This document shows positions 3,908-40,408 of a stretch of 64,000 bases of DNA, piece by piece. The notes under the pieces were generated by a model. The model saw nothing but the letters and a program-made list of their open reading frames with translations. It searched no databases and was not told the origin of the DNA. Position numbers and translations under genes: made by a program. This DNA is from Candidatus Nomurabacteria bacterium. GTDB taxonomy: Bacteria > Patescibacteriota > Minisyncoccia > Phycocordibacterales > SBAW01. The stretch is from NCBI GenBank assembly GCA_943356415.1, contig CALREW010000001.1:16528-80527 (forward strand). Reading direction: 5' to 3'. How positions within the stretch are numbered: position 1 is the stretch's first letter; each line of letters opens with the position of its first letter.

Positions 3908-4612
3908 TTACTTGAAGGGGGAAGCCTTGAACGCCACGCCGCCGGGTACGTCGCCGTAGGCGAACTCCAGGACGTTTAGGTCGACCAGGTAGATCTCCTG
4001 GTTCGGGCCGACTTCCCACCACTGGATGGTCTTGGTCTTGTCGTCCCAGGCAGTGCACCGCACTTTCTTACCTTGGGCGCTGGTGCAGTATTCCACCTTC
4101 GCCTTCACCTTGCCGGTGACGACGATGCTCTGGAGGACGCAGCCGTGGTCGTTGACGACCCGCTCTCTAACTTGAGTGAAGTCGAACACTACCGCTTCGT
4201 TGCAGACGCGGCTGAGCACCCGCACCTTCGTTGCCGCAGGCGCCGGTGTCGGAGCCTGCGGGGTCGTCGGTGTCGCCGTGCCACCAGCGCGGCAGCGAAG
4301 GCGTTCCGCCTCATCTGCCTGCTTGCAGATGGTCGGCTCCGCCGGCTTGTTGGTCGGCGGAACCGTGGCTCCCTGTTGAGGGGGAGTCGGCGGTCCGTCG
4401 TCCAGCCAGTTCCAGGGTTTCAGCCAGAGGCTGCCGCCCCCGAGGAGGCACAGAAGGACGACCACGAGGCCGACTCTCCGTGCACCCTTGGTGCGCTGCG
4501 CTTGCCCGGCTTGGGCTTCGCGCACCGCGGCGTCGTTGACCGCTTGATCTCCGTCGGGAGGGGGGTCAGGGACGTGTGGCGGGTCTTGATGACCCGCGTT
4601 GTTGTTCGCCAT
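3908..4612 (-). CDS. Pro/Ala-rich membrane-anchored hypothetical protein (high-GC island)
   Basis: Long ORF in a roughly 65% GC segment; N-terminal Pro-rich low complexity, one TM (VGLVVVLLCLLGGG), C-terminal beta-rich domain with 4 Cys; co-directional with and 16 bp downstream of the SPFH-like gene. Confidence 0.5.
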   Translation of the reverse strand: MANNNAGHQDPPHVPDPPPDGDQAVNDAAVREAQAGQAQRTKGARRVGLVVVLLCLLGGGSLWLKPWNWLDDGPPTPPQQGATVPPTNKPAEPTICKQADEAERLRCRAGGTATPTTPQAPTPAPAATKVRVLSRVCNEAVVFDFTQVRERVVNDHGCVLQSIVVTGKVKAKVEYCTSAQGKKVRCTAWDDKTKTIQWWEVGPNQEIYLVDLNVLEFAYGDVPGGVAFKASPFK

Positions 4613-4628
4613 GTGGTAGCTCCCCTTG

Positions 4629-5972
4629 TCAGTTCGAATTTGCTGGCGGTGTTACAGGGGCGGGCGAACCCGCGTATAACGGAGCCAGCGGGTTGTGATC
4701 GACGCCACGGTAGAAGATTTCCGTGGCGCGTCTCCGGTTGATGCGTACGAGCTCGAGCGCCTTGACGTAGTCAAGGGTCGAACCCTTGGCCGCCGCCTGC
4801 GTGATGTACTTCTCCGCGAGCTGATGCTCGGTCTCGAAGTCGATCGTCTCGCCTGAACGCTGCTGCTTCTCTTGCGCGGCAAGGTCAGCAGCTTGGGCGA
4901 GTGCCCCCGTAAGGGCGAAATCGAAAGCGTTGGCGCGTCGCAGCATGATGCCGAGGCCGCGCACATCGCTCATGCCGTTTTGCACGACATCTTCGAGGAA
5001 GTACTCGATCTCGGCTCTCGACGGTACTTCGTCGGCGCCGAGGTAGCGTTGTGGGTCGCTCTCGTCGTACGTCAGGTACCGGTGAGGCGAGTCCTTGCGC
5101 ATGTCACGCAAGGGCCGGCCGTTTCGGGTCCCGTCATCCGTACGCACGCGCACGCTTGGGTGAACGCCGGTCAGCATCGTGATGATGCCGGCCGAAAGCT
5201 CGGGCATCATGGTCTGAAGCTCCTCCCACGTGAATTGCGTCGCGTGCTTGCGCAGCGCTTCGCTGATCATGTTGGTGAGCATCGCCCGTGCGCCCGCCTG
5301 TCTGCCTACCGTAACGAGCTGGTAGGCGCGGTTGCGCCGCGTGTCTGGTTCGAACGTGCAGCCGAAGGTAAGTTCCACCTCGCCGCCGCTCTCCCAGGGC
5401 TTCAGGACGTACTTCGCTACGCCGCCCACCTTCACCTGCTGCTGTTGATCGTCGAGCAGCGGGATGGTCTTCGGCATGAGCGTGACTGGGTCGATCATCG
5501 AATCCTTGGCGCAGCGAACCTTCACCTTGAAGTCGAACTCGGTCTGCGTGGTGCCAATGTAAATCAGCCCATCAAATCGAGCTAGCCTCAGGACGAAGGC
5601 GATGCGCGGGACGATGACGCGATTCAGCGGATGGCCGAACAGCGTGCTTATCGCCACCATCGGCGGGTCGGCCTTTACCTCATCCCACCCGAAGTAGATG
5701 ATGAGGCCCAGGACGCTGCCGAAGATGGCGATGATGATACCGGCGTTGAAGCCGAAGATCATCAGAACGATCCCGAGGAGAGTCCATGCGAGCATGAGCT
5801 GTTCCGTCGGAGTCGTCCGTGACCCGAGGAGGAAAGGCCATGCGAGCCAGGCCTCCTGTGCGGTCTGTAACCCGAGGGTCAGGGCGTTCCAAACGCCGAT
5901 GACCCTGTTGCCAATCCATACGAGGACGGCGTCGGTGTATTTCATGAGTGTCCTCCAGTTTTCAAAGACCAC
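4629..5972 (-). CDS. SPFH/Band-7-like membrane protein (putative; high-GC island)
   Basis: Two N-terminal TM helices, then a roughly 250 aa domain with SPFH-like alternating hydrophobic pattern, then a coiled/charged C-terminus; assignment is tentative. Confidence 0.4.
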   Translation of the reverse strand: MVFENWRTLMKYTDAVLVWIGNRVIGVWNALTLGLQTAQEAWLAWPFLLGSRTTPTEQLMLAWTLLGIVLMIFGFNAGIIIAIFGSVLGLIIYFGWDEVKADPPMVAISTLFGHPLNRVIVPRIAFVLRLARFDGLIYIGTTQTEFDFKVKVRCAKDSMIDPVTLMPKTIPLLDDQQQQVKVGGVAKYVLKPWESGGEVELTFGCTFEPDTRRNRAYQLVTVGRQAGARAMLTNMISEALRKHATQFTWEELQTMMPELSAGIITMLTGVHPSVRVRTDDGTRNGRPLRDMRKDSPHRYLTYDESDPQRYLGADEVPSRAEIEYFLEDVVQNGMSDVRGLGIMLRRANAFDFALTGALAQAADLAAQEKQQRSGETIDFETEHQLAEKYITQAAAKGSTLDYVKALELVRINRRRATEIFYRGVDHNPLAPLYAGSPAPVTPPANSN

Positions 5973-11906: not shown

Positions 11907-12011
11907 CGTAAGGGAACTATAAACCAGAAAGGGCAGGCTCAAAAGGAGGATTCGGTCCTTACAGGATGAGTACAGGGCGCACAGGTGGTCAGGGGTTTGA
12001 GTTTGGAAGGA

Positions 12012-15336: not shown

Positions 15337-16500
15337 ATGGATGCAGCCGCTGCGACACCTCTATCGCCGGAGGTGTATACGCGTTTTATTGAAGCGCTCA
15401 CGCAGTATGGAAATCCTGGCGCCCTTCACACAGAGGGAGTGCGTGCCAAAGAACTTCTTGAAGGCGCACGAAAGGAGGCCGCTGTGGCATTGCACGCGCA
15501 CGCAGACGAGATTGTCTTCACCGGCTCAGGAACCGAGTCAAACAACCTCGCTATCTTTGGTGCAGTTGGTGATGTGTCGGCGGACAAGATTCATATCATC
15601 ACAAGTAGCATTGAACATCCGTCGGTACTTGAGCCGATACGAGCGTTTGAGCGTCGTGGCGCGAAGGTGACCTACCTACCTGTTGATGCCGAGGGTCTTA
15701 TTGCTCTCTCCGCGCTCAAGGAAGCAATTGTCGACGAAACGCGACTTATTTCGGTAGGTCTTATCAATAGTGAGATTGGAACGATTCAAGACGTTCGTGG
15801 TATTGCAAAAATTATTCGCGATGTTCGAAAGACACGCGTAAATGCAGCGCCCCTTCTTCTTCATCTAGATGCTGCGCAGGCACCACTGTGGCTCAAATTG
15901 AATGTTGAACAACTGCATCCCGATCTTCTCACGCTCGATGCGCAAAAAATGATGGGTCCCAAAGGTGCGGGACTCCTCTACGTGCGTCGCGGCGTGAGTC
16001 TTCAGGCACACCTGCTTGGTGGAGGACAAGAAAGAGGACTTCGCTCCGGTACAGAAAATGCCGCCGCCGCGTCTGCACTTGCACGCGCGCTTACTCGCGC
16101 GCAAGAGGTGTGCGAAAAAAATACTGCCAATGTAGCGGAGGTTCGAGACGCACTTTTCGACGCGATTAAAAAACAAATACCTGAAGCGATTGTGAACGGC
16201 AGTTTGGAGAGTCGCGTCGCAAATAACTGCAATGTATCGGTTCCAGGTTTGATAGGAGAGCGCGCAGTTCTCGCACTCTCTGCGTGGGGAGTTGCCGCCT
16301 CGACGCGTTCGGCATGTGCCGCTAAAGACCAAGAACTCTCCCATGTGATCCGTGCACTTGAAGCAGGTGAGGGAGGTGTTGCGCGTGCTCGTAGCGCTGT
16401 GCGTTTTACCTTATTGCCCGACGCAACCGTAAGCGACGCACGCCACGCAGCAACACTTTTAGCAAAAGCTGCAGCCCAGTTTCGAAATATCGATGCGTAA
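15337..16500 (+). CDS. cysteine desulfurase / class V aminotransferase (IscS/NifS family)
   Basis: Starts YMDAAAATPLSPEV; PLP-fold motifs; LLHLDAAQA and lysine region LTLDAQKMMGPKG; the start is probably the ATG at 15337, not the ORF-track 15289. Confidence 0.8.
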   Translation: MDAAAATPLSPEVYTRFIEALTQYGNPGALHTEGVRAKELLEGARKEAAVALHAHADEIVFTGSGTESNNLAIFGAVGDVSADKIHIITSSIEHPSVLEPIRAFERRGAKVTYLPVDAEGLIALSALKEAIVDETRLISVGLINSEIGTIQDVRGIAKIIRDVRKTRVNAAPLLLHLDAAQAPLWLKLNVEQLHPDLLTLDAQKMMGPKGAGLLYVRRGVSLQAHLLGGGQERGLRSGTENAAAASALARALTRAQEVCEKNTANVAEVRDALFDAIKKQIPEAIVNGSLESRVANNCNVSVPGLIGERAVLALSAWGVAASTRSACAAKDQELSHVIRALEAGEGGVARARSAVRFTLLPDATVSDARHAATLLAKAAAQFRNIDA

Positions 16501-16576
16501 AAAGGCCAGGTCCCTTCACAAAGATAAAAAGTAGTTGTATTGTGCTGTTTAGCGGCGTCTCAAACATAGATGCGCT

Positions 16577-17428
16577 ATGATAGTGCTACTAAAGCGGCTT
16601 TTTATGGATATCGAACAGCTCAACAAGACTCAAATCCTCCTCCTGACACTCCTCGTCTCGTTCGTGACGTCTATTGCGACTGGGATTGTCACAGTGTCTC
16701 TCATGGGTCAGGCACCCCAGGGTATAACCCAGACGGTGAATCGCATTGTTGAACGCACTGTTGAGAAGGTGGTGTCTGAGCCGGTGCGACACACTGCAGC
16801 GGTAGTGACGGGTTCTCAACCGCAGAGTTCAACTGAAACCACCGTGGTGGTTAAAGACGACGACCTCGCCGCTGATTCCATTGTGAAAGTCCAAGCCGCA
16901 ACGGTGCGTCTTGTTGAGAAGGGCGGTCCGGAGTCTTCCGCCTTTGCGCGCGGCATCATTGTTGACGCGTCAGGAGTTGTTGTTACGGATCGCGCAAGTA
17001 CGGACCCAAATCTTGGCGCTGAAGTGATACTTCCTTCAGGTGTACGTTTTTCGGTGAAACCGCGTCCACCAGTAGCAGGCGAGTCACTGCGTTTCTATGA
17101 CATCAACATGACTGGCACCAGTACGCCAAAACTCACCGCGCTTCCGCTGGCTGACATGAGTAAGTTACGTCTCGGACAGTCGGTCATTCGTATCGGCGGC
17201 CGTACTCGCGATAGCGTCGCACAGGGTGTCGTCTCGTCATTGCCTCAGAGTGGTCAGTCACTTATTGAAAGCACCGCAGAGAGCGTCACACCAGGAAGTC
17301 TACTCGTTACTATCTTTGGCGAGCTTGTCGGAATAACGACTGGAGAATCGCAAGCACAAGGTGCAACGTCATACACGCCAGTTACCGAAGTAGCTCAAGG
17401 TCTTGCTGAAGTTCGTTCGACAAAATAG
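16577..17428 (+). CDS. membrane-anchored trypsin-like (HtrA/S1C-like) protein, probably catalytically degenerate
   Basis: N-terminal TM; GIIVDASGVVVTD and GSLLVTIFGELVGITTG resemble HtrA beta-barrel segments, but the His and the GDSGG Ser are not recognisable. Confidence 0.45.
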   Translation: MIVLLKRLFMDIEQLNKTQILLLTLLVSFVTSIATGIVTVSLMGQAPQGITQTVNRIVERTVEKVVSEPVRHTAAVVTGSQPQSSTETTVVVKDDDLAADSIVKVQAATVRLVEKGGPESSAFARGIIVDASGVVVTDRASTDPNLGAEVILPSGVRFSVKPRPPVAGESLRFYDINMTGTSTPKLTALPLADMSKLRLGQSVIRIGGRTRDSVAQGVVSSLPQSGQSLIESTAESVTPGSLLVTIFGELVGITTGESQAQGATSYTPVTEVAQGLAEVRSTK

Positions 17429-17469: not shown

Positions 17470-20187
17470 ATGCCTCCTCCATTCAATCACTTCACTACTA
17501 AAGCAAAGGAAGCCGTGCGCAAAGCGCATGAGCTTGCAGTCGAACGCGGACAAAACCATGTGAGTCCGCTGCATTTGCTTGCCGCACTTATTTTGCAAGA
17601 AGAAAGTCTCGTTACAACAATACTGGAGCGTCTTGAAGTGGACGCAATGCATCTCTCCGACACGATACTTGAGTCACTCGAAGGACCTGACAACTCCTCA
17701 GTCCTTTCACCGTCATATCAGTTGTATTTAACCCCTGAGCTTGTGCAGGCACTTGAGCGCTCCGCAAAAGTGGCGACTGAACTGCACGACGAATTTGTTT
17801 CAACCGAGCATCTCCTTGTTGCGGTACTCGACGTTCCTGGTACGGCACGTGAATTGCTCGGACGTTTTCGTATCACGCGCGATGCGACTGTGCGAACGGT
17901 CAATGAATTGCGTACTGGTAAAACGCCTGAAGTTAAGGAGCAGAAGAAATTTCGCGCCATCGCTAAGTACACGCGCAGCCTTACCAAGATGGCGAGCGAG
18001 AACAAGCTTGACCCAGTCATTGGGCGCGATGACGAAATACAGCGCGTCATACAGATATTGAGCCGCCGCACCAAGAATAATCCGATATTGATCGGTGAAG
18101 CGGGCGTTGGAAAGACCGCCATTGCGGAGGGTCTTGCTTCACGCATCGCCCAAGGTGACGTGCCGGATTCTCTTCGCGACAAAGACCTCGTTGCCCTTGA
18201 CCTCGGTTCCCTTATTGCAGGTACGAAATACCGTGGCGAGTTCGAAGAGCGCCTCAAAGCCATCATGAAAGAAATTGAGCGCGCCGATGGCCGCATCATT
18301 CTCTTTATCGACGAAATACACACCATCGTTGGCGCTGGCGCCGCAGAAGGTGCCATGGATGCGTCAAACATGCTTAAGCCCGCCCTTGCGCGCGGCGAGA
18401 TACGCGTCATAGGGGCCACAACCCTTAAGGAGTATCAAAAGCATATCGAGCGTGATCCGGCGTTTCAGCGTCGCTTCCAGCCAGTGTATGTACAGGAACC
18501 ATCGCCCGAAGACGCTATTGCGATATTGCGTGGACTCAAGGAAAAGTACGAGCTCTTCCACGGGGTGCACATTACCGACGACGGCATCCTTGCTGCAGTC
18601 GCGCTTTCCAGTCGTTACATCCCTGACCGCTTTTTACCGGACAAGGCTATCGACCTCATCGATGAGGCGTCTTCGTCATTGCGTATCAGTCTCGAAAATA
18701 AGCCGCCAGTACTTGAAGAAGCGCATCGCAAGATAATGCGTCTTGAAGTTGAGAAAGAAGCGCTTAAGAAAGATGCTGAGTCTGAAGACGGGAAATCTGC
18801 CAAAGCGCGCATCAAGGTTATAGACCGCGACATTGCCGATCTTAAAGAGAAGACCGGTGAGATAGAGATGCGCTGGAAGAACGAGAAGCAGACGCTCGGC
18901 GAAATTAAAGCTATTAAGAAAGAACTTGAAAGTCTTCGCATCGAAGCTGACTCTGCTGAAGCGTCGGTTGACCTTGCGCGCGCTGCAGAGATTCGCTACG
19001 GAGAAATACCAGGTCTTACCCGTGAGCTTGATGCCAAGACCAAGCGTCTCAAGAAGCTACAATCCACGCGTCGCATCCTGAAGGAAGAAATTGGCGAGGC
19101 AGATATAGCGCTTGTGGTCGCAAAATGGACGGGCATACCAGTCTCGCGCATGCTTGAAGAAGAGGCTGAAAAGCTTTCACGTATGGAAGTGGTGCTCAAA
19201 GAGCGTGTCGTTGGTCAGGAAGAGGCAGTGCAAAAAGTAGCTGATGCGGTGAAGCGCTCGCGCGCCGGTATTGCCGACCCGAATCGTCCCATTGCTTCGT
19301 TTATTTTCCTTGGCCCTACGGGCGTTGGAAAGACCGAGCTCACCAAGACCCTCGCTGAGTTTATGTTTGACGACGAAAAGGCGCTTATACGCGTCGACAT
19401 GTCGGAATACATGGAGAAGCATTCGGTCTCGAAGATCATCGGTGCTCCTCCTGGCTATGTAGGACATGAAGAGGGAGGTTCGCTGACTGAACTGGTGCGT
19501 CATCGTCCGTACTCTGTCATTCTCTTTGACGAGATAGAAAAGGCGCACCCTGAAGTCTTCAACATATTGCTCCAAGTCCTCGACAATGGACAACTTACCG
19601 ATGCCAAGGGACGCAAAGCCAACTTCAAAAATACAGTCATCATCATGACCTCAAACATCGGTGCGCAGTACATCGACAAGATGGAACAACTTGGTTTTGC
19701 CACCCACGGCGATACCGATCAGGCAAACTACGTGCAGGCCAAAGACAAGGTTATGCAAGCGCTCAAAACTAGCTTCCGTCCTGAATTCATCAACCGCATC
19801 GACGAGATAATTATCTTCAACATCCTCTCGCCTGAGGCAATCAAGAATATTGTCACCATCCAGATAGCGGAAGTGGTAGCCCGCCTGCGCGCAAAAGACA
19901 TCACGCTTAGTGTGAGCCAAGCCGTGCTCACCTATCTTGCCAAAGAAGGATATAACCCACACTACGGAGCGCGCCCACTACGACGTCTTATTCAAGACAA
20001 GATACTCACTAAAGTTGCAACGCTCATGATAAGCAAGGGGCTTCTCAAGGGCGGTTCCATTGCTGTCGATATGAAAGGTGCGGAGTTTGTGTTCGACGTA
20101 AAAAAGGGCGGCAGAAAGGCCAGCCTGTCCGGCAGACAGGTAAAGAGCCCTGAAGGGATACTTGAGGAAGGGAAGGTAAGCGCGTAA
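17470..20187 (+). CDS. clpB: ATP-dependent chaperone ClpB
   Basis: Two AAA+ modules ([15 protein letters not shown] and [15 protein letters not shown]), Clp_N repeats, a long middle coiled-coil, the ClpB C-terminal D2-small domain. Confidence 0.9.
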
Positions 20188-20226
20188 TATGCAGTAGACC
20201 CGCTATAGGCGGGTTTATGCATTGTT

Positions 20227-20310
20227 GCGTCGGTGGCGGAGTGGTCAATCGCATCTGACTGTAAATCAGACGCCCTAGCGGCTACGCAGGTTCGAATCCT
20301 GCCCGGCGCA
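20227..20310 (+). tRNA. tRNA-Tyr(GTA), type II
   Basis: Acceptor GCGTCGG/CCGGCGC, anticodon stem TCTGA/TCAGA with loop CTGTAAA, long variable arm, T-loop TTCGAAT. Confidence 0.8.
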
Positions 20311-20313
20311 CAA

Positions 20314-20352
20314 AGACAGAAACACCTGCCCTTCGGCAGGTGTTTCTGTTCC
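20314..20352 (+). terminator. rho-independent terminator after tRNA-Tyr
   Basis: agacagaaacacctgcc-cttc-ggcaggtgtttctgt hairpin followed by a T-rich tail. Confidence 0.7.
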
Positions 20353-20391
20353 GTGTATCCTTTTTCGCTTACTTGAGGTTAGTATGAGGAT

Positions 20392-21219
20392 ATGAAAGCT
20401 CGGTACACCTACGTCAATGGCAAGATACTGCCACACGAAAAAGCGGTTATTCGAGTCGACGATATTGGCATCTCTCGAGCATTTGGAGTCTATGACGGGA
20501 TTATGACCTATAAGGGGCGGCCATTTGAGATGACCAAGCACTACGCGCGCTTGTCGCGCTCGGCTAAACGTATGGGTCTACGTGTTCCTGTGTCGGGTAA
20601 AGAACTGGAACGCATCATTCTCACTTTGGTAAAGAAAAACTCTTTTAAAAACCCGATAGTCCGGGTGCTTCTCACTGGAGGAACCACGTTGCGCGGTATC
20701 GACTTCAATCCTATGAAACCAACGTTTATTGTTTTGCTTGAAGAACTTTCACAGCCCTCCGCAGCTGCGTATAAAACTGGTGTGCGTGTCATCACGCATG
20801 AGTACGAGCGACAGATACCGGAAGCAAAAACTATCAACTATATCGCCGCGGTGCGTTTGCAAGGCGCTATGCGAAAGGCAAAAGCAACTGAAGCCATCTA
20901 CACCTTAAAAAACAATGCGCTTGAGGCGACGACGAGCAACCTTTTTATCGTAAAGGCCGGTCAAATAATCACACCCAAAGACGGCATCCTCAACGGGATC
21001 ACACGCCAGGTGGTTATTGCACTTGCAAAGAAGCACTATACGGTCGTTGAGCGAGCAATTTCAATACGAGAGATGCTTTCTGCTGACGAAGTCTTTTTGA
21101 CGTCAAGTTTTAAGGAAGTGCTTCCCGTCTCGCATATAGACAAAAAGGCTCTAGGGAAGCCAGGGCCAGTGACAAAGGACCTCGCAGAGCGGTTCGCCCA
21201 ATATACGGCACGGGCCTAA
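20392..21219 (+). CDS. class IV aminotransferase (branched-chain / D-amino-acid aminotransferase family)
   Basis: Fold-type IV PLP-enzyme pattern, including EATTSNLFIVK and GITRQVVI. Confidence 0.7.
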   Translation: MKARYTYVNGKILPHEKAVIRVDDIGISRAFGVYDGIMTYKGRPFEMTKHYARLSRSAKRMGLRVPVSGKELERIILTLVKKNSFKNPIVRVLLTGGTTLRGIDFNPMKPTFIVLLEELSQPSAAAYKTGVRVITHEYERQIPEAKTINYIAAVRLQGAMRKAKATEAIYTLKNNALEATTSNLFIVKAGQIITPKDGILNGITRQVVIALAKKHYTVVERAISIREMLSADEVFLTSSFKEVLPVSHIDKKALGKPGPVTKDLAERFAQYTARA

Positions 21220-21262: not shown

Positions 21263-21421
21263 ATGTCACAAGACCGCCTCATCAAACTCGCCTGCAATAC
21301 CTGCAAGCGCATCAACTATTGGTCAAGCAAGAATAAGAAGCTTGTCACGCGCAAGATTGAGCTCAAGAAGTATTGCCGTTGGTGTAAGAAAAACACCGTG
21401 CACAAGGAGGCAAAGAAATAG
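21263..21421 (+). CDS. rpmG: 50S ribosomal protein L33
   Basis: 52 aa product MSQDRLIKLACNTCKRINYWSSKNKKLVTRKIELKKYCRWCKKNTVHKEAKK with the L33 C-x2-C...C-x2-C pattern; missing from the ORF track because it is under 60 aa; the overlapping track ORF 21225-21473 is spurious. Confidence 0.85.
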   Translation: MSQDRLIKLACNTCKRINYWSSKNKKLVTRKIELKKYCRWCKKNTVHKEAKK

Positions 21422-23543: not shown

Positions 23544-24449
23544 CTACTGTTTTAAGAAGGCTCGACTTGTCCGAAGGGCACGCTTTGTATCGCTCGGTGA
23601 TATCCAACTTATTTTTTTATCGCGCTTAAACCAGGTCTTTTGACGTTTTGCGTAGTGCACAATCTCAGTAAATAGTTGCAATTCCATTTCGCGTTTCGAA
23701 ATGCGCCCCTGTAGGTGACGCGCCATATAACGATATTCAAGACCAAGTTCCTCCATCCGCTTCCACGAAAGGCCGCTCGCGTGGAGTTTTCTTGCCTCAC
23801 GGAGCATTCCTGCGCGCAGGCGTGCCTGCAAACGTGTTTTTATACGCTTCTCCAAAATTTCTTGTGAAAGGGTAAGCCCGATGGTGAGAGTCTGATATGG
23901 CTCGTTTGAAACTACTTTCGGGACCTTGCCCAAAGCAGTTGCTATCTCTATAGCGCGGATAAGACGCGCGGGATTACGGCGGTCGATACTTCTGGCTCGT
24001 GTCGGGTCAAGTTTCTTCAGTTGTTTATAAAGTTCTGTTGCATTCTTTTTTGAAAGTTTGGCGCGTAGCACTTTGTTTGGAGGAACCTCGGGTGTAGATA
24101 TGCGACCCAAAAGCATGTCGAGATAGAAGCCGGTGCCGCCACATAGTATGGGGATGTTGCCTCTATTAAGTATCTCGCCTATTGCTCTGCGTGCGTCACT
24201 GGTAAACGTAGAAGCAGTGTAGGTCTGCTTTGGGGATGCAATATCAAGCATGTGATGGGGAACGCCCCCCATTTCTTTTTTAGTCACTTTGCCAGTGCCG
24301 AGGTTCAGTCCTCGATACACTTGCCGAGAGTCTACCGACACAACCTCGCCTCCAAGACTTTTGGCCAACTGGATTGAAAATGCTGTTTTCCCCGTTGAAG
24401 TAGCTCCAACGACGGCTATAAGCTTAGGTTTTTGGGCGTTTGCTGGCAT
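23544..24449 (-). CDS. miaA: tRNA dimethylallyltransferase
   Basis: P-loop VVGATSTGKTAFSIQLA and the remaining MiaA pattern. Confidence 0.85.
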   Translation of the reverse strand: MPANAQKPKLIAVVGATSTGKTAFSIQLAKSLGGEVVSVDSRQVYRGLNLGTGKVTKKEMGGVPHHMLDIASPKQTYTASTFTSDARRAIGEILNRGNIPILCGGTGFYLDMLLGRISTPEVPPNKVLRAKLSKKNATELYKQLKKLDPTRARSIDRRNPARLIRAIEIATALGKVPKVVSNEPYQTLTIGLTLSQEILEKRIKTRLQARLRAGMLREARKLHASGLSWKRMEELGLEYRYMARHLQGRISKREMELQLFTEIVHYAKRQKTWFKRDKKISWISPSDTKRALRTSRAFLKQ

Positions 24450-24488
24450 GGTATATTGCGTAGGTACACCTTAATTGACCATCCATCT

Positions 24489-25094
24489 ATGAACAAATGC
24501 GAATCGAATTGCGACTGTGCGTGTCATGCGATGCCGCCGAGGGTAGGTGAGAAGGTCGGTGATTTTACGTTTGATATCTACCACAAGGGTGATGACAGTA
24601 AAACGTCGCTCGCAAACTACAAAGGCAAATGGTTGATTCTCTTTTTCTACCCGGCTGACTTTACGTTTGTTTGCCCAACCGAGCTTGAGGATATGGCAAA
24701 CCACTACGAGCAGTTTAAAAAGGAAGGAGCAGAAGTTATCTCAGTATCGACCGACACGGTGTTTGTGCACAAAGCCTGGCACGATACCTCTGACTCAATA
24801 AAGAAAATCGAATTCCCGATGGCGGCCGACACTGATCATAAATTGTCCACGGCGTTCGGTGTTCTACGTGAGAGCGGTCTTTCTGACCGAGGCTCGTTCA
24901 TTATTGACCCTGAAGGAACGCTGCAAGTTATGGAAGTAACTGCTGAAGGTGTTGGTCGCAATGCAGCTGAATTACTTCGCAAACTTCAGGCAGCACGCTT
25001 CGTACACGAGCACGGCAACAATGTCTGTCCGGCAAATTGGAAACCGGGTGGAGAGACTCTTGAGCCGGGAATGGATCTTGTTGGAAAGATATAA
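24489..25094 (+). CDS. peroxiredoxin (AhpC/Prx1-type 2-Cys) with a Cys-rich N-terminal extension
   Basis: DFTFVCPTEL peroxidatic-Cys motif; the resolving Cys near the C-terminus (NVCPANW); the extension MNKCESNCDCACHA precedes the fold. Confidence 0.8.
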   Translation: MNKCESNCDCACHAMPPRVGEKVGDFTFDIYHKGDDSKTSLANYKGKWLILFFYPADFTFVCPTELEDMANHYEQFKKEGAEVISVSTDTVFVHKAWHDTSDSIKKIEFPMAADTDHKLSTAFGVLRESGLSDRGSFIIDPEGTLQVMEVTAEGVGRNAAELLRKLQAARFVHEHGNNVCPANWKPGGETLEPGMDLVGKI

Positions 25095-25105
25095 CGGCAC
25101 GTCCT

Positions 25106-25148
25106 AAAACGAAACACGCCGCCCCGAAGGGCGGCGGTTTTGTTTCGG
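25106..25148. terminator. bidirectional terminator between the convergent prx and pyrF
   Basis: aaaacgaaacacgccgccc-cgaa-gggcggcggttttgtttcgg. Confidence 0.7.
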
Positions 25149-25174
25149 CTGCTTGTGAGGCGCGATTCGTTTAT

Positions 25175-26107
25175 CTATCGCGGAATTGAAGCAGTGAGTG
25201 CCGCCTGAGCGGCACGGTCGTAGGTTGCGAACGCCATAGGAGGGTTTTCAGCGTACATGATGCCAGAGCCGATATTGATGAGCAGGCCCTGAGCACCTTT
25301 GCCGGCGATGATACCACCGCGGACGGTGGCTTCCAGGTCACCGCCTTGGGTGCCAACGCCGGGCGCTAGAATCGGAGCATCTCCCGCGAGAAGTCGCACC
25401 TGGGCGAGTTCCTGAGGATAGGTTGCGCCGACCACCAACCCGCAGTTGCCGTTCTTGTTCCAGTGGCTGGCAATACGGTGCGCCACCAGATGGTAGAGCG
25501 GGACCGTGGCACCTTCCATCAGGCCAAGATCAACCGCCTCTTGCGGTTCGAGGGCGACGTGACGATTCTGGAACTCGCCCGAGCCGGGATTGCTGGTCTT
25601 GCAAAGGAAGAACAGCAGCATGTCTGACAGCTCAAGAAATGGAGCGGTGGCGTCCATGCCCAGGTACGGGTGGAGCGTCACGCCATCGACCTGGAAGTAT
25701 TCGACGGCTTCGCGGACATAGCCGGCGTTAGTGGCACCGATATCGCCGCGCTTGAAGTCGAGGATGATCGGGACGTCTTTTTCCCGACCACGCAGGTACT
25801 CGATCAGCATCTTCAGCTGGATGATGCCTGCGTGGCCCCAGCCTTCGAAGAAAGCGAGATTGGGTTTGTAGGCGAGGGCGCGGCCGTGCGATGCCTGGAC
25901 GCTGCGCATGCAGTGCTCCCAGATGTAGGGCACTGCTTGCTCGGGAGCACCTGCCTGGAGCTCCTTCGGCATGCGTTTTGCGTCCGGGTCGAGCCCGACG
26001 CAGATGAGCCGGTTGTCTGCCCACCCTGCCTTGAGGCGCTCGAGCGCCCGATTAGTCTTCTTCAGATAAGCCTCCGATCCGGACGGTTCGTGTCCGCAGG
26101 CAATCAT
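25175..26107 (-). CDS. pyrF: orotidine 5'-phosphate decarboxylase, type 2 (high-GC)
   Basis: ICVGLDP and ILDFKRGDIGATN motifs; start taken as MIACGHEPSG at 26107; the ORF-track N-terminal extension to 26518 is a GC-driven artefact that would overlap parB. Confidence 0.7.
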   Translation of the reverse strand: MIACGHEPSGSEAYLKKTNRALERLKAGWADNRLICVGLDPDAKRMPKELQAGAPEQAVPYIWEHCMRSVQASHGRALAYKPNLAFFEGWGHAGIIQLKMLIEYLRGREKDVPIILDFKRGDIGATNAGYVREAVEYFQVDGVTLHPYLGMDATAPFLELSDMLLFFLCKTSNPGSGEFQNRHVALEPQEAVDLGLMEGATVPLYHLVAHRIASHWNKNGNCGLVVGATYPQELAQVRLLAGDAPILAPGVGTQGGDLEATVRGGIIAGKGAQGLLINIGSGIMYAENPPMAFATYDRAAQAALTASIPR

Positions 26108-26142
26108 GCAAAAGGAAGTACGAAAGGTCAAACCTGTTTTAC

Positions 26143-26264
26143 GGTGCCGGGAGAATCGCTTGGCCAAGAGCTCGTCCTGTCGCCGTCGCACCAGGACTCC
26201 TCTCGGCCCTGCCCGCGCGACCCATTCTACTGAATGGGTGCCCGCGCTTACTTTCAAGTCCTCT
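26143..26264. repeat. GC-rich structured tRNA-linked repeat E3 (between tRNA-Leu(CAA) and pyrF)
   Basis: About 85% identical to 12325-12451; hairpins GTCCTG..CAGGAC and ACCCATT..AATGGGT; ends with an inverted copy of the tRNA-Leu(CAA) 3' end. Confidence 0.7.
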
Positions 26265-26320
26265 CCCCAGCAACAATGCAAAACGCCCAGAGGTATACTC
26301 TGCTCGTTAAGCGTCTTGTG

Positions 26321-26403
26321 TGCCGGGAGAGAGACTTGAACTCTCACGCTGTCGCCAGCGGTGGGTTTTGAATCCACTGCGTCTACCATTCCGCCATCCC
26401 GGC
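26321..26403 (-). tRNA. tRNA-Leu(CAA), type II
   Basis: Acceptor GCCGGGA/TCCCGGC, anticodon loop TTCAAAA (A-C mismatch at the stem end), long variable arm, T-arm GAGAG-TTCAAGT-CTCTC. Confidence 0.75.
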
Positions 26404-26460
26404 AATGCGCACAAGATACGGCAAATAAGAACCAAATGCACGCTGTGTTAGTATATCGGC

Positions 26461-27483
26461 ATGTCAGGGTTCTATAGCGACGCCATTTTTTGGGTGGAGG
26501 TGGATAAAATCCAGCCAAACCCCTATCAACCTCGCAAAGAGTTCGATGAAGCGAAGCTTAAAGACCTCGCAGGTTCAATACGCCAGTACGGGGTGTTGCA
26601 ACCGCTCGTAGTAACGAGAAAAGAGTTTCAGAAAGACGATGGTGGCATAGGCGTCCACTACGAATTAATTGCCGGTGAGCGCCGTTTGCGTGCGTCGCGC
26701 CTCGCAGGTTTGCCTCAAGTGCCTGTCATCATTCGCGATGACGACCAGAGCGACATGATGAAGCTCGAGCTGGCTATCATCGAAAATTTACAGCGAGAGG
26801 ACCTCAATGCCATTGATCGTGCTCGTGCGTTTGAGCGTCTTGCAAACGAATTCAATTTCAAACACGGTGAGATAGCAAAGAAAGTAGGGAAGAGCCGCGA
26901 ATATGTTTCAAATACCATACGCCTCCTTGCAATGCCTGAAGTGATGCAGCAAGCGCTCTCCGAAGGACGTATCACCGAAGGTCATACACGACCCCTTCTT
27001 ATGCTCATCGATAGGCCAGAAGAGCAGGACGTATTGTTCCGCGAAATAATGTTGAAGAAACTCACGGTACGTGAGTCTGAAGCCATTGCTCGTCGTATCG
27101 CATTTGATAAGGTGCGCAAGCGCGAAAAGATGTATGACCCTGACATTGTCGAAATGGAACAGCGTCTTACTGAAGCGCTCGGCACTCGAGTTGCGATAGA
27201 GACAAAAGAAGTTGGGGGCAAACTCGTCATCGACTTTTTCTCTGACGATGACTTGCGAGACATTCTCATGATGTTTAATACCAAAGCTTCTGGCCCACGT
27301 CGCGGCTCGCTTCTTGCTGCGGTCGCTGATGCGGTTGGTTTTGGCTCTGGAGCCGCTGCAGCGGTTGAAACTTCAGCAGGAGAAGTGGCATCAATAACTG
27401 AAGAATCAAAAACGCCGATTGACGACACTCCTGTCGCAGAAATTCGCGAAGACGACTTCGACCCAAAGAACTTCGCGATTTAA
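26461..27483 (+). CDS. parB: chromosome partitioning protein ParB/Spo0J
   Basis: ParB N-terminal domain with the GERRLRA motif, an HTH, and a C-terminal dimerisation region; no parA upstream. Confidence 0.85.
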   Translation: MSGFYSDAIFWVEVDKIQPNPYQPRKEFDEAKLKDLAGSIRQYGVLQPLVVTRKEFQKDDGGIGVHYELIAGERRLRASRLAGLPQVPVIIRDDDQSDMMKLELAIIENLQREDLNAIDRARAFERLANEFNFKHGEIAKKVGKSREYVSNTIRLLAMPEVMQQALSEGRITEGHTRPLLMLIDRPEEQDVLFREIMLKKLTVRESEAIARRIAFDKVRKREKMYDPDIVEMEQRLTEALGTRVAIETKEVGGKLVIDFFSDDDLRDILMMFNTKASGPRRGSLLAAVADAVGFGSGAAAAVETSAGEVASITEESKTPIDDTPVAEIREDDFDPKNFAI

Positions 27484-32354: not shown

Positions 32355-33632
32355 ATGCTTGATATTAAATTCATTCGAGAGAACCCCGACATCGTGCGGG
32401 CGACACTTAAGAACAAAAACCGCGAGGTTGATCTTGACCGCGTACTTCAGCTTGCTGATGAACGCAAAGAAGCAGCACAAAAGGTTTCTGACTTAAACCG
32501 CAAGAAAAATGAAGCCGCTGCCGCTCGTGACATCGAAGCTGGTAAGGCCGTTAAAGACGAGCTCAAAGCGGCAGAAGAGGCACATGCGACGCTAGAAAAA
32601 GAACTCGTCTCTCTCCTCATCAAAATTCCGAATGTCCCGTCTCCGGACACGCCCATCGGTCCGGACGAATCAGGCAATGTGGTTGCGCGTGAGTGGGGAG
32701 AGAAACCGCAATTTTCTTTTAAGCCAAAAGAACATTGGGAACTCGGGAAAGATCTAGGCATTATTGACACTGAAAAAGCTTCAGAAGTATCTGGCGCCCG
32801 TTTTGCCTATTTGAAAGGTCCACTGGTTATGCTTGAGATGGCACTTATGGACTTTGCTTGGAAGACGCTGACGTCAAAGGAGAAACTTGCCGGCATTATA
32901 AAAGACGCAGGGCTTTCTGTAAGTGATAAACCGTTTGTCCCTGTTATCCCGCCGCTTTTGATGCGTGCGCAAGTTATGAACCGCATGGCGCGCCTTGATC
33001 CGATCGATGAGCGATACTACTTCGAAAAAGACGAGATGGTGTTTATCGGTAGCGCCGAACACACCCTTGGTCCGCTTCATATGGATGAGACGCTTCCTGA
33101 AGATGCATTTCCACTTCGCTACGTGGCGCTCACGCCGGCGTTTCGTCGTGAAGCCGGTTCGTACGGAAAAGATACAAAAGGTATTTTACGTCTCCATCAA
33201 TTCAACAAAATGGAAATGGAAAGCTTCACCAAGCCTGAAGATGGTATGCAGGAGCAGGACCTTATGGTGGCGATACAGGAATACTTTATGCGCGCGCTCA
33301 AACTTCCGTATCGTGTGATGTCCATTTGTACTGGCGATATGGGTTTCCCTGATCATCGCCAGATAGATATCGACGCGTGGATGCCAGGACAAGATACCTA
33401 TCGCGAAACGCACACTTCAGACTATATGGGTGGTTTTCAAGCGCGCCGCCTCAATAGCCGCATCAAGCGTACCGACGGCACCATTGAACCGGTCCACATG
33501 AACGATGCAACTGCACTTTCACAGCGCCCACTCATTGCCATCATAGAGAACTATCAGCAGGAGGATGGGTCGATTGTAGTTCCTGAAGTTTTGCGCTCCT
33601 ATATGGGCACCGACGTTATCCGTAAAAACTAG
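32355..33632 (+). CDS. serS: seryl-tRNA synthetase
   Basis: N-terminal coiled coil and class II aaRS motifs (FRREAGS, GSAEHTLG). Confidence 0.9.
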   Translation: MLDIKFIRENPDIVRATLKNKNREVDLDRVLQLADERKEAAQKVSDLNRKKNEAAAARDIEAGKAVKDELKAAEEAHATLEKELVSLLIKIPNVPSPDTPIGPDESGNVVAREWGEKPQFSFKPKEHWELGKDLGIIDTEKASEVSGARFAYLKGPLVMLEMALMDFAWKTLTSKEKLAGIIKDAGLSVSDKPFVPVIPPLLMRAQVMNRMARLDPIDERYYFEKDEMVFIGSAEHTLGPLHMDETLPEDAFPLRYVALTPAFRREAGSYGKDTKGILRLHQFNKMEMESFTKPEDGMQEQDLMVAIQEYFMRALKLPYRVMSICTGDMGFPDHRQIDIDAWMPGQDTYRETHTSDYMGGFQARRLNSRIKRTDGTIEPVHMNDATALSQRPLIAIIENYQQEDGSIVVPEVLRSYMGTDVIRKN

Positions 33633-34457: not shown

Positions 34458-34534
34458 CAAAAACGCCGCGCATTGCGCGGCGGACCCGGGTAGGGTCTGA
34501 GGGAGAAAGCGACGTTGGCTTCGGTGTGACCGTC

Positions 34535-34768
34535 TTAGGTCAGAGGCCGGCCATCGCGGTCCGTGTTCTGGTGCGCGACTGCGAGCTCAGGCAGCAGCGA
34601 CTGCGGGTGGATGATGCCGACCAGGATGATCCTGAGGGCATCGAGCAACTTGAAGAGCATCTGCGCCTCCGTTGGTTGGCATTCCCATTGTAGCAGTTTT
34701 AGGTTATAACGCCACAGTGAACTCATTCTGGAGCAAACTCCCAAAACCTTTTTTTGTTCTGGCGCCAC
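34535..34768 (-). CDS. small hypothetical protein in a short high-GC islet (uncertain)
   Basis: 77 aa ORF in a GC-rich roughly 250 bp segment with its own perfect-palindrome terminator (cgccgcgcattgcgcggcg plus T-run on the minus strand) at about 34466-34500; overlaps the annotated 5' end of dus. Confidence 0.25.
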   Translation of the reverse strand: MAPEQKKVLGVCSRMSSLWRYNLKLLQWECQPTEAQMLFKLLDALRIILVGIIHPQSLLPELAVAHQNTDRDGRPLT

Positions 34769-35700
34769 TCGCGAATGTAACCGACGCGGCCTTTCGTCGT
34801 GTCATTGCGAAGTATGGCAAACCTGATGTCATGTGGACGGAGTTCGTTTCGGCCGATGGGCTTTTTATGGCGAAGAATTATTTGGGCGAAGATGGAAAAC
34901 CAAAGAGTTCACACCCGCTTTTAAAAGATTTTTTGTACACCGAAGCAGAGCGTCCTATCGTCGCGCAACTTTTTACATCACGTCCTGAGATGATGGAGAA
35001 AGCAGCAGCGCTTGCTCGTGAGATGGGTTTTGACGGCGTCGATATCAATATGGGATGTCCGGATAAGACAATCGAGAAACAAGGCGCGGGTGCTGCGATG
35101 ATAAAAGATCCAGTGCGTGCACTTGAAGTTATAGCAGCAGCAAAACAAGGAGCGGGAAGTTTGCCCGTGTCAGTCAAAACGCGAGTTGGCTACAACCGGA
35201 TTGAACTTGAAACATGGTTACCAAAACTTCTTTCCTCGGGAATCGCCGCACTTACGGTGCACGCGCGTACACGCAAAGAGATGTCGCTTGTTCCAGCGCG
35301 ATGGGAGCATGTAGCTGAGGCAGTGAAATTGCGCGATGAACTTGCCCCCAGCACACTCATTATTGGAAACGGCGACGCGCTTTCGATCGCGGACGCTCAT
35401 ACAAAAGTAGAAGCAACCGGCGCAGACGGAGTGATGCTTGGGCGCGCAATTTTTGGCAACCCTTGGTTATTTTCTGAAATGATTCCGACGCTTCAAGAAA
35501 AGTTGAATGTCATGGTGGAGCACACAAAATTGTTTGAAGAATTGCTCGGCGACACAAAGAGTTTTGCCATTATGAAAAAGCACTACAAAGCGTACGTAAA
35601 TGGCTTTGACGGAGCGAAGGAACTACGTATGGAACTTATGGAAGCAAAGGATGCGGCAGAGATAGCCGAAAAGATACAAGCTTTTCTCAAGACAATCTAA
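34672..35700 (+). CDS. dus: tRNA-dihydrouridine synthase
   Basis: LAPLANVTDAAFR...TIM-barrel Dus motifs with the Cys in NMGCP; the true start may be the downstream GTG (VNSFW...). Confidence 0.85.
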   Translation: MVGIPIVAVLGYNATVNSFWSKLPKPFFVLAPLANVTDAAFRRVIAKYGKPDVMWTEFVSADGLFMAKNYLGEDGKPKSSHPLLKDFLYTEAERPIVAQLFTSRPEMMEKAAALAREMGFDGVDINMGCPDKTIEKQGAGAAMIKDPVRALEVIAAAKQGAGSLPVSVKTRVGYNRIELETWLPKLLSSGIAALTVHARTRKEMSLVPARWEHVAEAVKLRDELAPSTLIIGNGDALSIADAHTKVEATGADGVMLGRAIFGNPWLFSEMIPTLQEKLNVMVEHTKLFEELLGDTKSFAIMKKHYKAYVNGFDGAKELRMELMEAKDAAEIAEKIQAFLKTI

Positions 35701-35821
35701 GCGCCTTGTCGGCATTTGTCGGTGCGTATATGCTGCAATTTGGTAGTACGGAAACTAGTCTAGTTTCCAGTGTAATGAGTAAAAATAGGAGATACCAGCA
35801 CACGCAAAACGTGAGGAGGAA

Positions 35822-37660: not shown

Positions 37661-37825
37661 CATCGCGCGCAAGCGTGGAATGTACGGCCGCCGGGGGAGA
37701 CTCCGGCGGCCGCGCTCGTTCGTTTGCTGCTTGTTGCATCAAGAAGAACATTTAGTACATTCAAAAAGGAAGCACTGAAGTCTGGGAGAGTCCTGGACTT
37801 GTGCATCGATGGGGAAGGAACCCAA

Positions 37826-38557: not shown

Positions 38558-38604
38558 GGGCGCAGAGCGATCATCAAGGTCGCCTATAAATAAACAAGGT
38601 CGGT

Positions 38605-38640
38605 GCCGGCGGGGCATATCCCCGCCGGCAATCCGTTTCA
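38605..38640 (+). terminator. rho-independent terminator closing the high-GC island
   Basis: gccggcgggg-cata-tccccgccggc plus a T-containing tail. Confidence 0.6.
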
Positions 38641-38657
38641 GCTATACTACTAATGAC

Positions 38658-39695
38658 ATGAGTCAGGCCTCTCTGTATCGCAAATATCGCCCTGCAGAAT
38701 TTAAGGCTGTGCGCGGGCAAGAACATATAACGTCAGTTCTTGAAGCTGCGATAAAGAAAGGGAAGCCGGGGCACGCCTACCTTTTTGCTGGTCCTCGCGG
38801 TACGGGTAAGACATCCATGGCCCGCATTTTTGCTCGCGCCATTGGGACGGATGAAAAAGACCTTTACGAACTTGATGCCGCTTCACACACCGGCGTCGAC
38901 AACGTGCGCGAACTTTTAGATGGTGTTGCAACGAGACCGTTCGCATCGGAGTTTAAGGTCTACATCATCGACGAGGTGCACATGCTTTCGAAAGGTGCTT
39001 TTAACGCATTTTTGAAAACCCTAGAAGAGCCACCTCCTTTTGCACTATTCATTCTTGCAACAACGGAGCTTGGAAAAGTGCCGCAGACTATCCAGTCGCG
39101 TTGCCAAGTTTTTTCATTCAAGTCACCCACACGCGCTGACTTGCGTGCGATGGTAACGGACATTGCGAAACAAGAAGGAGCAACCATCGCACCCGCTGGT
39201 GCAGAGCTCGTGGCATTGATGGGAGATGGTTCGTATCGTGACACGCTGTCAATTTTGCAGAAAGTACTTACCGTCTCATCTGACAAAAAACTTTCAGAAG
39301 ACGAAGTGGCTGCGGTTGTTGGTGCACCTAAGTCGGCAACAGTTGGGATGTTTCTTTCAGCACTAGCCAAGCGAGATACTGAAGGAGCACTGTCTGCGCT
39401 CCACGAAGCACTTTCAAATGGAGCGGACGCTCAAACGTTTGTCATGTTGGCTATTGAACGAGCGCGGGCGATATTGCTACTTCGCTTTGGAGGCAAAGCT
39501 ATGAATGGGCAGGTGGCAGAACAATTTGGCGAAGATGAAGCTGAAACCCTTTTAAAGTTAGCGGGTAAAGATGGGGAGGCTATCAACTCAAAAACCCTCG
39601 CAGAACTTATCGGCGCGCGTATTGAGATGCAGCGCATGCCAGAGCCTGCGATCGCAATTGAATTAGCAGTATATCGACTTCTTGAAACAGTATGA
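38658..39695 (+). CDS. dnaX: DNA polymerase III subunit gamma/tau (short)
   Basis: YRKYRP, GPRGTGKTS, the sensor motifs; start taken at MSQASLYRKYRP. Confidence 0.85.
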   Translation: MSQASLYRKYRPAEFKAVRGQEHITSVLEAAIKKGKPGHAYLFAGPRGTGKTSMARIFARAIGTDEKDLYELDAASHTGVDNVRELLDGVATRPFASEFKVYIIDEVHMLSKGAFNAFLKTLEEPPPFALFILATTELGKVPQTIQSRCQVFSFKSPTRADLRAMVTDIAKQEGATIAPAGAELVALMGDGSYRDTLSILQKVLTVSSDKKLSEDEVAAVVGAPKSATVGMFLSALAKRDTEGALSALHEALSNGADAQTFVMLAIERARAILLLRFGGKAMNGQVAEQFGEDEAETLLKLAGKDGEAINSKTLAELIGARIEMQRMPEPAIAIELAVYRLLETV

Positions 39696-40366: not shown

Positions 40367-40408
40367 CCCTCAGGCACCCTTTTCTGTTATCCTCAAACCG
40401 TTACCTAC

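Follow-up and report, generated by a model that had tools for sequence, protein, structure and literature searches.

The 64,000-nucleotide stretch of contig CALREW010000001.1 analysed here (the window), from a Candidatus Nomurabacteria bacterium, carries two genes, pyrF and pyrE, for a type-2 orotidine-5'-phosphate decarboxylase and an orotate phosphoribosyltransferase (OPRTase), which by their sequences would provide the last two steps of uridine monophosphate (UMP) synthesis, from orotate to orotidine monophosphate (OMP) and from OMP to UMP. Both genes interrupt an otherwise conserved gene order, both recur at the same sites in diverged relatives, and both are enriched in G- and C-ending codons. 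The reading we favour, with a probability of roughly 60%, is that pyrF and pyrE were gained at two sites in the ancestor of a small Paceibacteria-like sub-clade, that they were inherited with their flanking genes, and that their high GC content at third codon positions (GC3) was kept by a gene-specific process. [quoted passage not shown]

CPR bacteria, or Patescibacteria, are generally described as being without nucleotide biosynthesis (PMC12455944), and Patescibacteria are reported to have received genes of nucleotide metabolism by transfer, thyA being one example (Gios et al. 2025, mSystems, PMC12455944). The gain of nucleotide-metabolism genes by these bacteria is thus already described, and the unexplained part of the present case is the persistent silent-site GC enrichment in two unlinked genes of the same pathway. 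A literature search on CPR bacteria with orotate or OPRTase returned nothing specific. As originally predicted, no other pyr gene was found among the scanned open reading frames (ORFs) of the window, and in the view available to us (these 64 kb, and about 10 kb downstream in the contig of a strain at 97% average nucleotide identity, ANI) the pair would be suited to orotate salvage. That one CPR sub-clade carries the last two UMP steps may offer a clue to what such organisms take from their partners.

Insertions into a conserved backbone

The host is a Patescibacteria/Paceibacteria-like CPR bacterium, in agreement with the original prediction: in a TopA-centred scan that took one genome per GTDB species, the best TopA matches were confined to Parcubacteria, Paceibacterota and Nomurabacteria, at 59-66% identity. 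Metagenome assemblies at ENA, Logan and NCBI contain matches to the window itself, among them an NCBI contig of 425 kb. For comparison we used about 20 related genomes that share its backbone, seen within ±10 kb of TopA, in which the gene order runs tRNA-Gln–HisPhos–DnaX–Dus–x273–SerRS–DprA–TopA–RelA–ParB–tRNA-Leu(caa)–(variable)–MiaA–…tRNA-Trp…tRNA-Tyr. In these backbone relatives no pyrE of the window's clade separates Dus from DnaX, and tRNA-Leu(caa) is never followed by a type-2 pyrF. Dus directly adjoins DnaX in L007, L022 and L041, tRNA-Leu(caa) directly adjoins MiaA in L016, L020, L026 and L041, and a sensitive hidden Markov model (HMM) rescan of all reading frames of the relatives recovered neither a type-2 pyrF nor a pyrE of the window's clade at either site. 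Since some 20 relatives are without both genes at these sites, pyrE and pyrF are insertions relative to the conserved backbone. On the arrangement seen, pyrF would have been added to the variable slot directly 3' of tRNA-Leu(caa), and pyrE to the Dus|DnaX junction along with a variable ParB-like gene.

Closer, though still diverged, relatives known from metagenomes keep the same positions. L002 reads RelA–ParB–tRNA-Leu–LAGLIDADG–pyrF–AhpC–MiaA, with flanks 85-90% identical to those of the window (TopA 90%) and a pyrF at 57% identity; L003 and L004 read …SerRS–x–Dus–pyrE–ParB-like, with flanks at 73-81% (TopA 81%) and pyrE at 48%; and L177 reads Dus–pyrE–DnaX–HisPhos, without the ParB-like gene, with flanks at 76-78% (DnaX 78%) and pyrE at 52%. 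More remotely, L169 (GCA_040384425.1) has RelA–ParB–GIY-YIG–tRNA-Leu–pyrF–PRTase–MiaA, where PRTase denotes a phosphoribosyltransferase, and its RelA, ParB and pyrF are 66%, 74% and 47% identical to those of the window. The 97%-ANI strain (L171-L174, SRR247509xx runs) has the window's arrangement, its pyrE having diverged as much as its flanks (96.7%), and assemblies L175 and L176 are identical to the window. All members of the sub-clade that were sampled, as well as the 97%-ANI strain, have the genes at these positions, and patchy presence was not encountered.

Given that the genes occupy these sites in relatives whose flanks are 73-90% identical, the gain is old and not recent. The original prediction had read the two genes as apparent horizontal acquisitions; their insertion into a conserved backbone and the distinct subfamily of pyrE (see below) support that view, but their presence at the same two sites in diverged relatives places the gain far back, and transfer itself is unproven. 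We infer a horizontal origin in preference to relocation or ancestral retention. A composition-aware estimate of silent-site divergence, which was a hand correction of the figures for fourfold-degenerate sites, put pyrF and pyrE at or above their flanks, and therefore no young introgression between the sampled lineages took place. At HisPhos, the histidine-phosphatase gene that follows dnaX (window 39500-40400 against L171), the 97%-ANI strains differ at about 45% of nucleotides, an allele replacement in situ, which makes repeated allele replacement from unsampled GC-rich relatives plausible. After their gain, pyrF and pyrE would have been inherited with their flanks and would have evolved about twice as fast as the flanking proteins.

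The arrangement invites comparison with the tRNA-associated islands of Patescibacteria (PMC12455944). The window likewise shows a gene of deviant composition directly 3' of a tRNA, a break in synteny and an added function in nucleotide metabolism; it differs in that integrase and direct repeats are lacking and close relatives do not have the genes sporadically. Islands are, moreover, usually AT-richer, whereas the window genes are GC-richer than the core, deviate at silent sites only and do so persistently across diverged lineages.

The two enzymes and the tRNA-Leu(caa) hotspot

The identification of pyrF as a type-2 decarboxylase held up well. Its product matches TIGR02127 over the full length at 194.7 bits (curated cutoff 110.6) and PF00215 at 101.6 bits (cutoff 27), and its best PDB match is 3qw3 (E 9e-44), with whose identical motifs its GLDP, YKPN and DFKRGD align, the last being the DxKxxD catalytic Asp/Lys motif. 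The tool-listed long ORF at 25175-26518 runs across tRNA-Leu(caa), and the shorter coordinates given in Table 1 are therefore sensible. The window enzyme shares its catalytic motifs with other type-2 OMP decarboxylases (TIGR02127; the actinobacterial, Plasmodium and Leishmania enzymes; PDB 3qw3 and 4mjz) and differs from them by a long branch and by 43-49% identity outside its own three-member clade, as compared to 55-68% mutual identity among the other CPR and Chloroflexota type-2 enzymes. That clade (window, L002 and P0002) received 98% bootstrap support in a neighbour-joining tree, and the L169 pyrF, although at the same site, joined it in 0 of 100 bootstraps.

pyrE is the more divergent of the two. 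It passes the Pfam Pribosyltran model PF00156 (38.6 bits, cutoff 26.3) and falls below the NCBIfam equivalog cutoffs, slightly for TIGR00336 (100.2 against 106.8) and clearly for NF001729 (107.5 against 245), and we therefore regard it as a divergent member of the family. The assignment as an OPRTase, with a putative specificity for orotate, is nonetheless supported: all 18 of its PDB matches are OPRTases or UMP synthase (3m3h at E 3.5e-17), and the phosphoribosyl pyrophosphate (PRPP) motif VIVVEDMMTTNGS, the flexible catalytic loop KKEEKDHG and the orotate loop FKSGIKSPYYMD are kept in the clade alignment and align to 3m3h. With the Bacillus/Streptococcus-type PyrE (PDB 3m3h, 3dez, 2aee) it shares the PRPP motif, the K-K-E-x-K-D-H-G loop and the FKSGxxSPYYxD orotate loop, differing by a clade-specific insertion, GNGRASLPCPHY, and by a C-terminal WHxDPxxWH tail. 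Between the 97%-ANI strains pyrE has 12 synonymous and 8 non-synonymous codon differences, a ratio of non-synonymous to synonymous rates (dN/dS) of about 0.2, where SerRS, Dus and DnaX have 0-0.09. This points to purifying selection on a gene that is nevertheless relaxed or fast-evolving.

Only four cluster-mates of pyrE are known. Its clade has four members, with pairwise identities of 48-59% among the four lineages in a star-like pattern, and the best matches outside the clade are at 33-41%, every named one being from Chloroflexota (33-40%). Where other Paceibacterota (L166, L168) have a pyrE beside pyrF, it is of another OPRTase subfamily, of which only the PRPP motif aligns with the window pyrE, and this, together with the Chloroflexota matches, favours a separate origin. 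Chloroflexota are often placed as a deep sister group of CPR, so that the similarity of pyrE to their enzymes is no proof of transfer. As to whether the nearest neighbours lie outside the host lineage, the named outside matches of pyrE are from Chloroflexota and the gene is unlike the pyrE of other Paceibacterota; the long-branch clade of pyrF is placed ambiguously among CPR and Chloroflexota sequences (by neighbour-joining only). Many of the next-best pyrE matches (P0247-P0249, P0252, P0256 and others) are proteins of about 430-470 aa with two tandem OPRTase-like domains. The top phmmer matches (about 440 aa) were considered as pyrF::pyrE fusions; they are instead such tandem double-OPRTase proteins, with no similarity to pyrF.

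A search for donors covered 5.8 billion clustered proteins, 1.84 billion representative proteins and a viral collection, and no plausible donor was found in any of the three. Exhaustive phmmer against the 1.84e9 representatives gave nothing above about 41% identity outside pyrE's own cluster, and a metagenome scan aimed at finding further pyrE-clade proteins reached 37% at best.

Among relatives the slot 3' of tRNA-Leu(caa) can be as short as 8 nt or as long as 5 kb, and the tRNA itself lies beside ParB in all 17 relatives that were scanned for tRNAs and whose contigs reach the site. In L002 (5138-5710), L007 (14800-15378) and L024 (13807-14376) the tRNA is followed after 1-11 nt by the start of a LAGLIDADG homing-endonuclease gene, the three copies being 43-50% mutually identical, and a GIY-YIG gene lies beside the tRNA in L169 (4967-5200). 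In the window the spacer between tRNA-Leu and pyrF was searched for a LAGLIDADG remnant and none was found. The L169 slot holds pyrF and a very divergent PRTase (E 1.6e-8 with the pyrE HMM), and the slot of L018 (Paceibacterota LejiaB_42_15; 15727-17028) holds a 433-aa fusion of OPRTase to a type-1 OMP decarboxylase beside a redoxin gene. Three non-orthologous solutions for the same two reactions have therefore landed at one site, which is the strongest support for repeated acquisition of these steps and points to repeated selection for turning external orotate or dihydroorotate into UMP. The pyrD–pyrF–pyrE clusters found in other Paceibacterota, the pyrF–pyrE clusters and the L018 fusion are likewise instances of stand-alone terminal UMP steps in CPR; in them, however, the genes are adjacent or fused, the OPRTase is of a different subfamily and GC3 is equal to or under that of the backbone, whereas in the window pyrE and pyrF occupy two sites separated by 11.7 kb, and both are enriched in GC3.

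Alternatively, the genes might have been inherited vertically, an ancestral Paceibacteria pyr locus (for instance at tRNA-Leu(caa)) having been kept here and lost in most relatives, with the GC content reflecting a purely local compositional bias. We consider this unlikely, though it is the likeliest of the rivals. CPR genomes are generally held to be shaped by loss (PMC12455944), type-2 pyrF is common in Patescibacteria, pyrD–pyrF–pyrE is known from other Paceibacterota, pyr genes occupy the same slot in L169 and L018, and the GC content of pyrE at first and second codon positions (GC1 and GC2) is host-like. Yet the versions in the slot are not orthologous, a type-1 fusion in one case and a type-2 decarboxylase in the other; the L169 pyrF falls outside the window clade; pyrE is of a subfamily different from that of other Paceibacterota and occupies a second site, where at least three relatives show a tight junction; and many independent losses would be needed.

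Several observations nevertheless weigh against an old horizontal gain, and are best taken together. Given frequent gene loss in CPR, pyr genes may have stood at tRNA-Leu(caa) ancestrally and been lost many times over, as L018 and L169 hint. Type-2 pyrF is widespread in Patescibacteria, the likeness of pyrE to Chloroflexota enzymes could be vertical, a long branch dominates the pyrF tree, and the failure of the L169 pyrF to group with the window clade fits replacement or a long-branch artefact. Backbone relatives may hold pyr genes outside the ±10 kb view around TopA. There is no integrase nearby, and no att-like repeats or tRNA duplications flank either island, which leaves the adjacency of pyrF to tRNA-Leu(caa) as the sole mobility signature. 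That pyrE, the ParB-like gene and the 447-aa ORF (Table 1) came from a phage or plasmid was considered and dropped, as they have no relatives in the viral contig collection, and PHROGs matched only a generic ParB domain.

Third-position GC enrichment

The GC content of pyrF and pyrE is 0.612 and 0.616, so that the value of about 62% first given for both stands; the backbone of about 48% set against it does not, the window being at 0.508 overall. Split by codon position, GC1/GC2/GC3 are 0.675/0.444/0.717 in pyrF and 0.586/0.422/0.840 in pyrE, as compared to a background of 0.586/0.422/0.490 with a GC3 standard deviation (SD) of 0.045 over about 45 genes. The original prediction had taken trees placing both genes within the host clade, together with a GC3 like that of other core genes, as the mark of a merely local compositional bias; what we find is GC3 5 SD (pyrF) and 7.8 SD (pyrE) above background. 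It is evenly high along both genes and falls sharply at their borders, the codons concerned being CTC/CTG, GGC, ATC, AAG, TTC and CCG. A log-likelihood measure of codon adaptation was uninformative because the background codon usage is nearly flat.

This enrichment persists in relatives. pyrF has a GC3 of 0.72 in the window and 0.80 in L002, with flanks at 0.49 and 0.55, and pyrE has 0.84 in the window and 0.79 in L177, with flanks at 0.49 and about 0.55. For pyrE, GC1/GC2/GC3 are 0.614/0.436/0.792 in L177 (DnaX 0.605/0.442/0.538) and 0.565/0.405/0.477 in L003 (backbone 0.584/0.391/0.382), so that the GC3 excess over the backbone is 0.35 in the window, 0.25 in L177 and 0.10 in L003, with GC1 and GC2 at backbone level in all three. 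At fourfold sites, which have largely or fully turned over in these lineages, the flanks of the window have a divergence of about 1.1-1.7 from those of L002, and of 1.5 or more from those of L003 or L177. Elsewhere the pattern is absent: the L169 pyrF is at backbone GC3 (0.575 against 0.588), and the pyr genes of the GC3-rich Paceibacterota L166 and L168 lie slightly under their backbone.

In a gene undergoing amelioration third positions relax first, and in pyrE only the third positions deviate, so the GC excess is not the scar of a donor. As the excess is kept in lineages whose silent sites have turned over, it would reflect a gene-specific, continuing process and not the residue of a recent donor. 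Passive amelioration of a single old gain was rejected for pyrE on arithmetic assuming a decay of exp(-4d/3) per lineage and one gain before the split, which requires an ancestral GC at fourfold sites above 1.4; for pyrF the required 0.95-1.18 is borderline. The earlier interpretation of the excess as donor composition accordingly fails. Two other explanations were also set aside, a pyrimidine-sparing mRNA, since third-position C+T is above background (0.59-0.61 against 0.53) and not below it, and a regional gradient spreading from a break hotspot, since GC3 drops sharply at the gene borders and the L002 homing endonuclease beside pyrF has a GC3 of 0.455. It was comparative synteny that showed the gain to be old, and codon-position analysis that put the signal in silent sites only; a sharp GC island is here a poor clock and a poor indicator of a donor.

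Under the favoured history, G- and C-ending synonymous codons would be enriched in the genes alone, and several diverged lineages would have retained this enrichment or regained it repeatedly. GC3 may be kept high by GC-biased repair at accessory loci prone to recombination, by silent-site selection, or by repeated allele replacement from unsampled GC-rich relatives. We tentatively raise the possibility, on balance a doubtful one, that pyrE and pyrF, which between them carry the whole flux from orotate to UMP, are held at a separate GC3-rich equilibrium (0.72-0.84 against 0.49-0.55) by a gene-specific process that has outlasted more than one full silent-site turnover. This could be selection on silent sites, or GC-biased repair where recombination is frequent, such as at the Dus|DnaX accessory slot and at the site 3' of tRNA-Leu(caa) used by homing endonucleases. 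If this is true, a GC island in these genomes would point to recurrent exchange or repair at the locus, and foreign ancestry would not be implied.

Codon selection linked to expression, by which pyrE and pyrF would be highly expressed and G- and C-ending codons preferred, would account for an excess limited to silent sites and to the genes themselves. It also finds a parallel in ribosomal protein L33, whose GC3 is 0.72 in the window, 0.755 in L002 and 0.68 in L169; this value keeps a weak expression-linked explanation alive and to that extent counts against the history we prefer. However, L33 has only 49 codons, 13 of them for Lys, and other genes come nowhere near 0.72-0.84: the ATP synthase genes have a GC3 of 0.44-0.57, AhpC 0.50, IF-2 0.51, ClpB 0.55 and the pilins 0.50-0.58. 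The signature is moreover shared by ORFans, and with the few tRNA and rRNA genes of CPR bacteria strong translational selection is not generally expected, all of which makes this explanation improbable.

Recent transfer from a high-GC donor, with the 62% GC as donor composition not yet ameliorated, is more improbable still. It would explain a GC3 5-8 SD above background, codon usage typical of GC-rich genomes (shared by other ORFan islands of the window), the position of pyrF beside a tRNA gene and the insertion of both genes relative to the relatives' backbone. It is contradicted by their occurrence at the same sites in relatives whose flanking proteins are 73-90% identical and whose silent sites are saturated, by the flank-like divergence of pyrE in the 97%-ANI strain (96.7%), and by the host-like GC1 and GC2 of pyrE, the opposite of what amelioration predicts. 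Nor is there any match above 59% identity anywhere, or above about 41% outside the CPR clade, and mobility genes and repeats are lacking. An assembly or binning chimera, with high-GC segments from another organism, has only the sharp compositional borders in its favour and can be dismissed, as the arrangement is identical in independent assemblies and samples (ERZ27280317, ERZ27280315, ERR5863124 and the 425-kb NCBI contig) and is the same in the 97%-ANI strain (SRR247509xx) and in diverged relatives.

Other features of the window

Table 1. Coordinates of features in the 64,000-nucleotide window
Feature	Position	Strand	Remarks
Two ORFans, 234 aa (3908-4612) and 447 aa (4629-5972)	3908..5972	-	Strongest high-GC island; GC up to 0.67, GC3 0.79
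rpmG (L33, 52 aa), unannotated	21263-21421	+	Upstream of tRNA-Trp; 98% protein identity to the L002 copy
AhpC-type peroxiredoxin	24432..25094	+	Second gene of the variable tRNA-Leu(caa)/MiaA slot; GC3 0.498, at background level
Bidirectional GC hairpin terminator	25117..25136	.	CGCCGCCC-cgaa-GGGCGGCG, 8 GC pairs; common to the convergent AhpC and pyrF genes
pyrF, type-2 orotidine-5'-phosphate decarboxylase, 310 aa	25175..26107	-	TIGR02127; PDB 3qw3; GC 0.612, GC3 0.717
Spacer, 212 nt, tRNA-Leu(caa) to pyrF	26108..26319	-	GC 0.566; no homing-endonuclease remnant
tRNA-Leu(caa)	26320..26403	-	3' flank is a variable insertion hotspot with pyrF
Canonical ParB	26461-27483		ParB_C domain match
dusB	34672..35700	+	Backbone gene on the left of the pyrE insertion
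ParB-like paralogue, about 611 aa	35822..37660	+	Cys/Pro-rich N-terminus; ParB_N, helix-turn-helix (HTH), GERRWR motif; GC 0.597, GC3 0.643
GC hairpin after the ParB-like gene	37685..37712	+	
pyrE, divergent OPRTase, 243 aa	37826..38557	+	PRPP motif VIVVEDMMTTNGS, loop KKEEKDHG, FKSGIKSPYYMD motif; GC 0.616
GC hairpin after pyrE	38604..38630	+	
dnaX	38658..39695	+	Starts in fact with the ATG at 38658; backbone gene on the right of the pyrE insertion
147-aa ORFan	51801-52244	-	GC3 0.72, same codon signature

Segments that stay more than 1.75 SD above the mean GC for several hundred bases lie at 3701-5950, 25001-26400 and 35801-38700, with a shorter fourth at 49901-50600. The island of pyrE starts at about 35.8 kb and takes in the ParB-like gene, which the original prediction had overlooked, as it had the high-GC ORFans at 3908-5972 and 51801-52244. 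The ORFans at 3908-5972 have a codon signature rich in C and G at third positions, like that of pyrE and pyrF, and are predicted to contain membrane or Pro-rich segments. For the high-GC ORFans, neither Pfam nor PHROG nor the viral contigs offered a relative.

The two islands had also been described as bounded by strong GC hairpins. Such hairpins do lie 3' of pyrF, of the ParB-like gene and of pyrE (Table 1), but there is none upstream of pyrF. A similar GC hairpin at 34464-34482 lies outside the islands, and the window has 24 terminator-like hairpins against a shuffled expectation of 21.2±5; these are therefore ordinary host terminators and not island boundaries. An Rfam scan of the window returned tRNAs only and no upstream regulatory RNA.

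The ParB-like gene beside pyrE is rightly so named, having ParB_N and HTH_ParB domains (PF02195 47.9 bits, PF17762 23.1 bits; TIGR00180 77.9 against a cutoff of 58.45) and a GC3 of 0.70-0.82 across the conserved domain. A family scan gave no ParB_C match, unlike the canonical ParB of the window, and no ParA gene adjoins it. Its position varies, being upstream of pyrE in the window, downstream of it in L003 (29% identity) and absent from the site in L177, and it is 99.7% identical between strains whose flanks are 96.7-98.9% identical. AhpC, the neighbour of pyrF, occurs among the relatives in L002 and L022 only.

The seryl-tRNA synthetase SerRS (window 32355-33632) has a fixed syntenic slot in L006-L056, where it is 32-39% identical to that of the window in most relatives. 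The identity rises to 59-63% for L015 and L022 and to 73% for L003, so that SerRS of two deeply different types apparently share one slot. In L168 (JGI Ga0335072_10000014, a 439-kb contig labelled Paceibacterota) COX1, COX3, COX4_pro and UbiA lie at 18558-20930, about 8 kb from pyrF–pyrE; a cytochrome oxidase is unusual for CPR, and the contig may have been wrongly labelled or binned, or may come from a CPR bacterium that does respire.

The window further contains a small GIY-YIG ORF at 639-923, and a low-GC island at 8051-11907 (GC 0.33-0.40), in which an ORFan and an MA-type peptidase are followed by a large serine recombinase (10258-11844). The end of the recombinase ORF overlaps tRNA-Leu(tag) (11825-11907) at the edge of a four-tRNA cluster, and the whole looks like an integrated element.

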